Shown piece by piece: positions 35,042 through 36,104 of a DNA stretch of 37,329 nucleotides. Each line of letters starts with the position of its first letter. The stretch's first letter is position 1. This stretch comes from a virus. Lineage: Duplodnaviria; Heunggongvirae; Uroviricota; Caudoviricetes. The translations under genes and the position numbers were made by a program. The stretch spans positions 1 through 37,329 of IMG/VR virus record IMGVR_UViG_2850808358_000008; one strand, given 5' to 3'. A model generated the notes under the pieces. It worked only from the letters and a program-made list of their open reading frames with translations. It was not told the origin of the DNA and searched no databases.

Positions 35042-35065
35042 GGTGCCCTCACAAATGAGGGCACC
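35042..35065. repeat. Perfect 10-bp inverted repeat (GGTGCCCTCA caaa TGAGGGCACC)
   Basis: Hairpin or symmetric protein-binding site directly upstream of the GATC cluster and the com promoter region. Confidence 0.4.
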
Positions 35066-35088
35066 ATACATAAGCAATAGGCATAACA

Positions 35089-35126
35089 GATCGATGCAAT
35101 AAATCCGATCGATAAAAACGATCGAT
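35089..35126. promoter_or_regulatory. Cluster of three GATCGAT motifs (three Dam GATC sites) upstream of com
   Basis: GATC at 35089, 35107 and 35120 within about 40 bp, some 45-80 bp upstream of the com start. Confidence 0.5.
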
Positions 35127-35170
35127 TTGTTATCATATCGGCAGCAGTAACCACACAAGAGGTGCCGCAA

Positions 35171-35368
35171 ATGACGCAAAATGTACGATGCAAAAATTGC
35201 AACAAACTACTTGCCCGCGCCTCATTTCACTACATTGAAATAAAATGTCCGCGCTGCAAAACACTTAACCAGATAACGAGAGCCATCGAGCACCCCACAC
35301 ACATGAGGAGTTATGACCGTGGGGATCGCAATCCAGCACCAACCAGCACATACACCGGAACACACTAA
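35171..35368 (+). CDS. com: Com-like zinc-finger translational regulator
   Basis: RCKNCNKLL and FHYIEIKCPRCK match phage Mu Com (RCKNCNKLL, FDHIEIRCPRCK) as recalled. AGAGG RBS. The 3' end overlaps the methyltransferase start. Confidence 0.8.
   Translation: MTQNVRCKNCNKLLARASFHYIEIKCPRCKTLNQITRAIEHPTHMRSYDRGDRNPAPTSTYTGTH
35293..35324 (+). promoter_or_regulatory. Hairpin sequestering the methyltransferase RBS and start codon
   Basis: CCCCAC (35293-35298) pairs with GTGGGG (35319-35324); the loop contains GAGGAG and the ATG at 35313. Confidence 0.4.
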
Positions 35369-36104
35369 GGTTTATCAGACTGACAATGCCATGCTCTGTC
35401 GTGGGAATGCGCTGGAAATATTGCCGCTGATTGAGCCAGAAAGCATTGATGCCTTAATCACTGACCCGCCTTACAGTTCGGGGGCGACACACAAGGCCGG
35501 ACGCACCAACTAGGGCAGCCATGCAAAATATCTAAACGGCGAGAACCTTCACCGCTTTGATGGGTTCGCGGGTGAAAACATGGACGCCCGTTCGTGGGCT
35601 TACTGGACACAATTATGGATGGCACAGGCACACCGCGCAGTCAGGCCGGGCGGTTATGCCTTGGTATTTACTGACTGGCGACAACTACCAGCTTTAACCG
35701 ATGCGTTTCAGGCCAGTGGCTTTACATGGCGCGGCATTATTGCGTGGAACAAAGGGAGGGGGTCACGAACACCACATACCGGGTATTTCCGGCATCAGTG
35801 CGAATACATCGTCTGGGGCAGCAAAGGCCATTTAGATAAATCGCCTTCGGGACCGTTCGACGGCTGCATGACGTTCCCGGTTATCCCGTCAAAGAAAATG
35901 CACCCGACCGGAAAACCAGAAGAACTAATGGCGGAACTGGTCAGGACTGTGAATAGTGGCGGAACAGTCCTTGATCCTTTTATGGGGTCAGGGACAACGG
36001 GGGTGGCTGCACTGAAAGCAGGACGCAAATTTATTGGTATAGAAACCAGTGATCATTATTTTGATGTAGCAACACAACGGCTCAAAACGGCGATCGAACC
36101 ATAA
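35313..36104 (+). CDS. DNA methyltransferase (N6-adenine/N4-cytosine, beta-class) with an in-frame amber codon at 35511-35513
   Basis: N-terminal DPPY motif (ITDPPYSSG) and C-terminal AdoMet-binding motif (DPFMGSGTTGVAA). The two ORFs (35313-35513 and 35580-36104) share one frame and are separated only by a single TAG. Confidence 0.75.

Follow-up and report, generated by a model that had tools for sequence, protein, structure and literature searches.

A Mu com-mom-like control region ahead of a disrupted DNA methyltransferase gene in a P2-like prophage

Is the two-layer control of mom in phage Mu peculiar to Mu, or does it also govern other enzymes in other phages? The question is raised by a short locus (35042-36104) in IMG/VR virus record IMGVR_UViG_2850808358_000008, whose 37,329 nucleotides (nt) were all analysed and are called the window here. 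A sequence-only reading had proposed that a Mu mom-like architecture, with clustered GATC sites, a com-like gene and a hairpin at the translation start, drives a DNA methyltransferase at this locus. The homology of the control region to that of Mu is upheld by our comparisons, but the C-dependent promoter of Mu is absent and the methyltransferase is killed by an in-frame TAG (35511-35513), which that reading had overlooked together with an in-frame GTG at 35319 and an inner helix that pairs the proposed ATG. We consider it likely that the cassette descends from a common ancestor with Mu com-mom, that Mom has been replaced by a beta-class methyltransferase, and that expression is gated in two layers.

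Com, its RNA site and the methyltransferase start

The features that bear on translation are as follows.

35171-35368, plus strand: com, encoding a 65-residue CCCC zinc-ribbon protein homologous to Mu Com (PF10122, PHROG 13819, RefSeq)
35157-35162, plus strand: Shine-Dalgarno sequence AAGAGG of com, 8 nt upstream of the ATG at 35171
35278-35302, plus strand: predicted Com-binding RNA site GAGAGCCAUCGAGCACCCCACACAC, from its alignment with Mu GAAUGCCUGCGAGCAUCCCACGGAG
35293-35324, plus strand: translation-inhibition hairpin from RNA folding, with outer stem CCCCAC/GUGGGG, inner stem 35302-35306/35311-35315 and tetraloop GGAG (35307-35310)
35305-35310, plus strand: Shine-Dalgarno sequence GAGGAG of the methyltransferase, 2 nt before ATG 35313 and 8 nt before GTG 35319
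35319-36104, plus strand: open reading frame (ORF) of a beta-class N6A/N4C DNA methyltransferase, read from the conserved GTG, disrupted (PF01555)

Profile searches bear out the com-like gene proposed at 35171-35368: its product matches Pfam PF10122 (Zn_ribbon_Com; E 9.5e-12, 44.6 bits against a cut-off of 22.9) and PHROG 13819 ('gpCom control of modification'; E 2e-17). It is identical to Mu Com at 25 of 42 residues (60%) and has the same four zinc-ribbon cysteines, at positions 7, 10, 26 and 29; no solved structure in the PDB matches it by sequence. A beta-class amino-methyltransferase overlapping the 3' end of com had also been proposed, and is present. The overlap is 50-56 nt, in different frames (com ends at 35368; the methyltransferase starts at 35319 or 35313), and the ORF matches PF01555 (N6_N4_Mtase; E 3e-33, 115.9 bits against a cut-off of 26.7) with the motif order of the beta class, DPPY (residues 51-54) being N-terminal to FMGSG (FxGxG; residues 213-217). 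Among solved structures, its nearest relatives are CcrM and a Helicobacter methyltransferase annotated as DpnA.

RefSeq annotates the same com ORF as 'Com family DNA-binding transcriptional regulator' and its partner as 'DNA-methyltransferase' (at 3222-3419 and 3364-4155, respectively, of locus L001). If the product name were right, Com would activate the promoter and not translation. We give this scarcely any credence, as the name conflicts with published evidence that the Com proteins of Mu and Haemophilus bind RNA in a sequence- and structure-specific manner and, by experiment, activate translation (PMC6483171); moreover, the RNA target motif and the hairpin are both conserved in the window.

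Published work defines that motif as CC(N)2-3GAG, set in a hexaloop that a C-G pair closes (PMC6483171). In the window, CC-AUC-GAG (35283-35291) provides the hexaloop CAUCGA of a short hairpin (pairs G35282-C35291 and C35283-G35290), directly 5' of the translation-inhibition hairpin. Mu has the same arrangement, with CC(N)3GAG directly 5' of a CCCAC/GUGGG hairpin that carries the payload GUG in its 3' arm and the Shine-Dalgarno sequence in its loop. We surveyed relatives in 80 viral-contig loci with Com relatives and in a pattern scan of viral contigs for Com site plus hairpin; the scan returned mostly chance matches, and filtering for an upstream Com ORF left 35 genuine cassettes. All 20 of the 20 diverse cassettes compared have GCC-N3-GAGC unchanged, and it occurs once in the window.

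The hairpin expected from the sequence folds stably (minimum free energy -15.8 kcal/mol over 48 nt; z = -2.46, with 5 of 200 shuffles folding equally well), CCCCAC (35293-35298) pairing with GTGGGG (35319-35324). It is positionally homologous to the translation-inhibition structure of Mu, in whose stem the mom GUG is located (PMC6483171), but is longer (6 + 5 base pairs, bp) and more stable than its Mu counterpart (-9.5 kcal/mol). The six outer pairs form in all 20 distinct sequences compared, with one compensatory change, C-G to U-A, that is synonymous in both overlapping reading frames. No Rfam family covers the com leader. An 18-nt stretch elsewhere in the window (18988-19005, GGGGTAATGACCGTGGGG) matches the 3' half of the hairpin (35307-35324) at 16 positions; we rejected it as a second leader because no Com site lies nearby, and the match is probably due to chance.

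The ribosome-binding site and ATG had been placed together in the hairpin loop. The hairpin and a Shine-Dalgarno sequence in its loop stand, but in the remainder of the 'loop' ATG 35313 is paired, within an inner helix of 5 bp that leaves GGAG as a tetraloop, and the conserved start is the GUG in the stem. In the fold of the 297-nt leader the unpaired probability is 0.00 for both ATG 35313 and GTG 35319 and 0.77 for the com AUG; the mom GUG of Mu shows like behaviour. The GTG at 35319 lies in the 3' arm in frame with the methyltransferase, and the corresponding GUG is invariant and in frame in all three payload classes described below. The loop ATG is confined to the window's own subgroup and is missing from L029, a cassette with a 73%-identical methyltransferase. 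Because the GUG is invariant in frame and lies 8 nt from the Shine-Dalgarno sequence, as against 2 nt for the ATG, we take it to be the conserved start codon; RefSeq, in opting for the loop ATG, probably begins the gene 6 nt before it.

The GATC triplet and the candidate promoter

Upstream of com lie the elements that would act on transcription.

35007-35034, plus strand: intrinsic terminator (stem-loop and T-run, from a terminator scan) that closes the hok unit and insulates the cassette
35077-35126, no strand assigned: OxyR-like operator with three Dam sites, GATC at 35089-35092, 35107-35110 and 35120-35123 (homology to Mu, consensus scores)
35109-35136, plus strand: candidate sigma-70 promoter with -35 TCGATA, a 16-nt spacer and extended -10 TG-n-TATCAT (promoter scan)

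The three GATCs that had been noticed upstream of com, clustered within about 40 bp, lie at 35089, 35107 and 35120 and are spaced by 18 and 13 nt, exactly as upstream of Mu com-mom (positions 260, 278 and 291 of locus L002; Mu reference for alignment, AF083977). Over the triplet, 28 of 39 nt are the same in window and Mu, and both have an ATAG upstream. Each GATC of the triplet is part of a heptamer, GATCGAT, found nowhere else in the 37.3-kilobase (kb) window. We dropped the density of GATCs as evidence, since a triple within 31 nt turns up in 19% of cases (p ~0.19) when the 89 GATCs of the window are placed at random; the significance of the triplet lies in the heptamer repeat and the match to Mu. 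Mu also shares with the window a Com with the same cysteines and a com gene that overlaps the payload start. We conclude that the control region shares ancestry with that of Mu com-mom, by homology and not analogy. The two differ in payload, Mom in Mu and a beta-class amino-methyltransferase dependent on S-adenosylmethionine (SAM) in the window, and in host element, Mu being a transposable phage and the window a P2-like one.

We scored both strands of the whole window, out of 20, against the OxyR consensus ATAGnTnnnAnCTAT-N7-ATAGnTnnnAnCTAT. The four top scores (15, 15, 14 and 13) all fall at 35077-35099, and a register beginning 3 nt before GATC 1 is common to the window and Mu mom (13/20). 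Control by Dam and OxyR is established for Mu mom and for Escherichia coli agn43 (flu) (PMC3378877; PMC2909390). Like the window, agn43 combines one OxyR site (14/20, against 15/20 in the window), beginning 2 nt before its GATC 1, with three GATCs, in agn43 spaced by 19 and 13 nt, and it carries CGATCG-N7/8-CGATCGAT; its stretch CGATCGTTTATATCGATCGATAAG is identical to the window at 22 of 35 positions and to sister cassettes at 27 of 35. The same CGATCG-N7/8-CGATCGAT, which contains GATCs 2 and 3, is conserved across cassettes of the methyltransferase, Mom and C5 types; L029, the window type and the Mu types have GATC 1 as well. The GATCs of agn43 start where the leader RNA isrC has its annotated 5' end, whereas those of the window are predicted to overlap the -35 and spacer. 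Com and a translational layer are absent from agn43, and phase variation, established there, is hypothetical for the cassette in the window.

Pmom of Mu is a late promoter with a poor -35 (ACCACA), a 19-bp T-run spacer, a -10 TAAGAT and a phage-encoded activator of the Mor/C family. This C-dependent promoter is not in the window: a 40-column alignment gap replaces its spacer, -10 and transcription start (~40 nt), ACCACA is found just 16 nt before the com ATG, and a tblastn search of the window for a Mu C/Mor homologue gave only noise (E >= 0.77). The late promoters of P2 that depend on Ogr have a TGT-N12-ACA dyad centred near -55; no such box occurs within 34990-35175. What the window has, in place of Pmom, is the predicted promoter at 35109-35136, whose -35 overlaps GATC 2 and whose spacer contains GATC 3. 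Its TGnTATCAT is retained in all methyltransferase-type relatives, and we treat it as a candidate.

The overlap of GATC 2 with the -35, and the position of GATC 3 in the spacer, would also suit a GATC cluster that acts without OxyR, either with methylation tuning RNA polymerase directly (as at IS10 pIN) or with the cluster recruiting SeqA, of which clustered GATCs are typical targets; expression would then be coupled through hemimethylation to the passage of the replication fork. We think this highly unlikely, as the top OxyR scores of the window fall exactly here, in the register of two proven OxyR/Dam sites, and the region is homologous to that of Mu, where OxyR is the established reader (PMC3378877; PMC2909390).

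Payloads, precedents and a premature stop

The leader GCC-N3-GAGCAYCCCAC...GUGGG(G/A) is common to three classes of payload among the relatives surveyed: beta-class methyltransferases, Mom and C5-cytosine methyltransferases (TIGR00675, 137 bits against a cut-off of 100.65). No fourth class was present among the 35 filtered cassettes of the viral-contig scan. Com-linked C5-cytosine methyltransferases (TIGR00675, dcm superfamily) are found in L039 (2155-3207), L066 (2059-3348), L060, L065, L186 and L200, and these cassettes start at the same GUG in the hairpin. L030, which encodes Mom, and L039 share a backbone and are identical to ~10 nt past the GUG before they diverge, an alignment that places the payload joint just after the GUG.

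A com gene followed by a methyltransferase in place of mom has already been published for Mu-like phages (PMC3299994) and for P2-like phages (KS5, PMC3091744; Smp131), and is annotated in RefSeq. In the Mu-like prophages FluMu (hin1523), Pnm1 (nma1821), that of Haemophilus aegyptius (hia5) and Pseudomonas B3 (orf47/48), a com homologue precedes a DNA methyltransferase at the mom position; in print these are regarded as Com-regulated anti-restriction enzymes, silent in lysogens and under laboratory conditions (PMC3299994). They have DPPY near residue 190 with FxGxG upstream, so that motif order and family differ from those of the window's enzyme, and near non-specific m6A activity has been demonstrated for them, whereas the window's enzyme is known from its sequence. 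Their elements are Mu-like, whereas the window pair is in a P2-like phage.

Closer in backbone are the overlapping com and PF01555-type methyltransferase genes tabulated for Burkholderia phage KS5 (gp21/gp20; PMC3091744), and the com and PF01555-type N4/N6 methylase genes, also overlapping, tabulated for Stenotrophomonas phage Smp131 (gp05/gp04). Like the window, Smp131 has the Com motif, CC-AC-GAG, ~25 nt upstream of the methyltransferase AUG; unlike the window, it lacks the CCCCAC/GUGGGG hairpin. The KS5 pair lies between tail genes and that of Smp131 beside the portal gene Q, whereas the window pair lies between ogr and attP. In both cases the published description consists only of entries in an annotation table and offers no analysis of regulation. 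A literature search, which left most subscription journals outside its reach, turned up no description of the E. coli P2-like cassette, whether of its conserved triplet of GATCs, its start at the stem GUG, its joint with the payload or its rearranged promoter. M.EcoGII, which its authors describe as prophage-resident (PMC5778455), is likewise of the beta class; we rejected identity with the window's enzyme on length (349 against 261-263 residues), the two having been compared by length and not by alignment.

These payloads also bear on the likeness to agn43. Dam and OxyR might compete at the operator to give an epigenetic ON/OFF switch in the lysogen, so that the methyltransferase would be heritably phase-variable and would serve a 'phasevarion' and not lytic anti-restriction. 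The operator does overlap the predicted promoter, where in Mu it sits upstream of an activator-dependent one, the GATC spacing (18/13 against 19/13) and sequence resemble those of agn43, there is neither a C/Mor homologue nor an Ogr box, and a terminator insulates the cassette. However, the promoter that this switch requires is a predicted one, Com gating and the Mom and C5 payloads in the same slot indicate a hazardous enzyme that lysogens keep switched off, and the mom-replacing methyltransferases of Mu-like prophages were silent under laboratory conditions (PMC3299994). We therefore regard a lysogenic switch as unlikely, and retain two-layer gating of the Mu type as the preferred reading.

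In the window itself, the payload is interrupted.

35511-35513, plus strand: in-frame TAG (amber) at codon 67 (numbering from the ATG), derived from CAG by C-to-T change (ORF reading and comparison with relatives)

The corresponding codon in relatives is CAG (23), CAA (3) or CAT (1), and the ORF read from the GTG is intact, at 260-266 residues, in 27 of 28 of them; L023 is the one other relative with a truncated methyltransferase. The 61-mer bearing the TAG has no exact match in 5,426 complete E. coli genomes. Truncation at residue 66 removes the SAM-binding motif and the greater part of the fold, and would leave the output of the module dead; re-initiation at M90 would lose the DPPY catalytic motif. 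On this reading of the sequence, the methyltransferase gene of this genome is a private nonsense pseudogene. One might object that the TAG is a sequencing or assembly error, or is read through, for instance by a glnV (supE)-type amber suppressor that restores Gln, and that the module is functional: the change is a single C-to-T transition in CAG, and all control elements, like the rest of the ORF, are intact, with ~99% identity to alleles that look functional. There is, however, no indication of a suppressor in the window, null alleles do occur (L023), and a product re-initiated at M90 would be without DPPY. We consider a functional module very improbable, and hold to the pseudogene.

The proposed control, the cargo slot and their meaning

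In intact cassettes of this type, transcription would start from a weak sigma-70 extended -10 promoter whose -35 and spacer overlap a 37-bp OxyR-type operator with three Dam sites. OxyR would bind when the GATCs are unmethylated and block RNA polymerase; full methylation by Dam would exclude OxyR and permit transcription. From the bicistronic mRNA com would be translated freely, because its AUG is open, and the methyltransferase start (GUG 35319, also AUG 35313) would be locked in the hairpin. As Com accumulates it would bind the CC-AUC-GAG loop immediately 5' of the hairpin and melt it, after which initiation would follow; since Com is needed to open the hairpin, the methyltransferase would be made only past a Com threshold. 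The enzyme would then modify phage DNA before packaging, presumably as an anti-restriction measure, as Mom does and as the methyltransferases that replace it in Mu-like prophages may do.

Several observations weigh against this account. In three relatives (L026-L028) all three GATCs have been lost, yet the methyltransferase is intact and the TGnTATCAT -10 is kept, so the Dam/OxyR gate can be dispensed with. OxyR binding at 35077-35126 and Com binding to the RNA at 35278-35302 are both suggested by homology, and more generally, whereas the anatomy of the cassette can be read directly, the mechanistic steps are carried over from Mu and agn43. The hairpin at the Com site is weaker than that of Mu, with two G-C pairs and an A-A mismatch, and RNAfold favours an alternative pairing. 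The z-score of the translation-inhibition hairpin is modest. Covariation in its stem is real but thin, as one pair has changed and the other five are invariant, and it probably reflects one evolutionary event. The candidate promoter is the sole promoter-like match in 34500-36400, where 2.1 are expected by chance. With neither a C-activated late promoter nor an Ogr box in the cassette, no signal for the timing of expression emerged. The anti-restriction role of the methyltransferase is conjectural.

The GATC loss in L026-L028 takes the form of a 31-nt deletion between GATCGAT repeats followed by a change of GATCGAT to AATCAAT, ~60-140 nt upstream of com (around locus position 1900-1950). Such natural operator-less alleles are potentially useful for studying the Dam/OxyR gate.

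The remaining features concern the limits of the cassette.

34995-36139, plus strand: variable cargo cassette (com and methyltransferase), approximate limits (comparison with sister phages)
35042-35065, no strand assigned: perfect 10-bp inverted repeat GGTGCCCTCA-caaa-TGAGGGCACC (read from the sequence)
36109-36130, no strand assigned: GC-rich stem-loop just 3' of the methyltransferase stop (terminator scan, minus strand only)

The window is a P2-like (P88/Xuanwuvirus-type) prophage, as had been proposed: gpD and Ogr were detected by profile search, and over 81% of a 24.9-kb query its identity to Chuche, a P2-like phage, is 95.7%. The order at its right end is gpD, ogr, a hok/sok module, com and the methyltransferase, followed by the host gene flk; the prophage-host junction on this side falls near 36236, and attL is not contained in the window. 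To the left of ~34995 and to the right of ~36140, sister P2-like phages match the window at 94.6% identity or more, and between these points they have a different two-gene cassette; 500465-2, Shae_phiSM and PhiR44_2 lack the com cassette while matching both flanks at this level. In Chuche, a free phage, the interval from ogr/hok to attP/int encodes an identical Com and a methyltransferase that is intact. Because the cassette is absent from near-identical sister phages it is swappable, and the comparison identifies it as genuine, self-contained phage cargo of ~1.1 kb. A 1,251-nt cassette query matched 978 E. coli records, 165 of which cover at least 80% of it.

In Escherichia phage 500465-2 (L086, 2150-3380) and Citrobacter phage Shae_phiSM (L087, 165-1395), the slot from hok to attP holds genes for a 110-residue zinc-ribbon protein and a 297-residue protein annotated as the type VI secretion system-associated TagO. 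The slot looks like a cargo hotspot, and this alternative cassette may be a defence or exclusion system. The 500465-2 prophage occupies the same flk site as the prophage in the window.

Between ogr and the cassette lies a hok/sok-type type I toxin-antitoxin locus (34634-34921), with a Hok/Gef ORF at 34781-34921 (PF01848, E 2.5e-8) and an Rfam sok match at 34634-34792 (47 bits, below the gathering score of 59; E 7e-9). The terminator that closes it was flagged on both strands, with 10-11 pairs and then TCTTTTT. The inverted repeat at 35042-35065, between this terminator and the GATC operator, is not followed by a T-run. Chuche and L022 have lost it while retaining the remaining cassette, and it is probably dispensable. 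The stem-loop at 36109-36130 is terminator-like, and on the plus strand has no T-run. To its right, at 36149-36166, is one copy of an 18-nt direct repeat, GTGG(A/T)CACTGCGTGGACA, the other lying at 11-28 (3' end of int). We rejected the pair as an attL/attR core because Chuche, a free phage, also has the two of them, one on either side of attP; they may be arm-type sites of the integrase. Farther away, in the late region of the prophage (23899-24392), are three tandem repeat copies with a 132-nt period and 83-87% identity, the reported unit being 230 nt and the copies hence overlapping.

In this genome the module yields no methyltransferase. For annotation of its relatives, the start of the methyltransferase is suggested to be the stem GUG, where RefSeq has the loop ATG. 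Beyond this genome, two-layer control of the Mu mom type would not be specific to Mu: it belongs to a mobile, conserved cassette found in P2-like and other backbones and coupled to at least three unrelated DNA-modifying enzymes. Such gating may keep prophage methyltransferases silent in surveys of methylomes. E. coli lysogens, or phage Chuche, would offer a simple system for work on a promoter-overlapping Dam/OxyR operator and on phase variation of a methyltransferase. We raise, tentatively and with considerable doubt, a wider possibility: that the Com leader is a portable 'safety-catch' cassette, made up of a Dam/OxyR operator, com, the Com site and a hairpin with a GUG-GGN start, that phages can recombine onto any hazardous DNA-modifying enzyme with a joint within the first 3-4 codons, and that its P2-type form, whose operator overlaps a promoter independent of an activator, could be an agn43-like heritable switch in E. 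coli lysogens. If this were true, a phase-variable prophage methyltransferase would be an epigenetically switched epigenetic writer.

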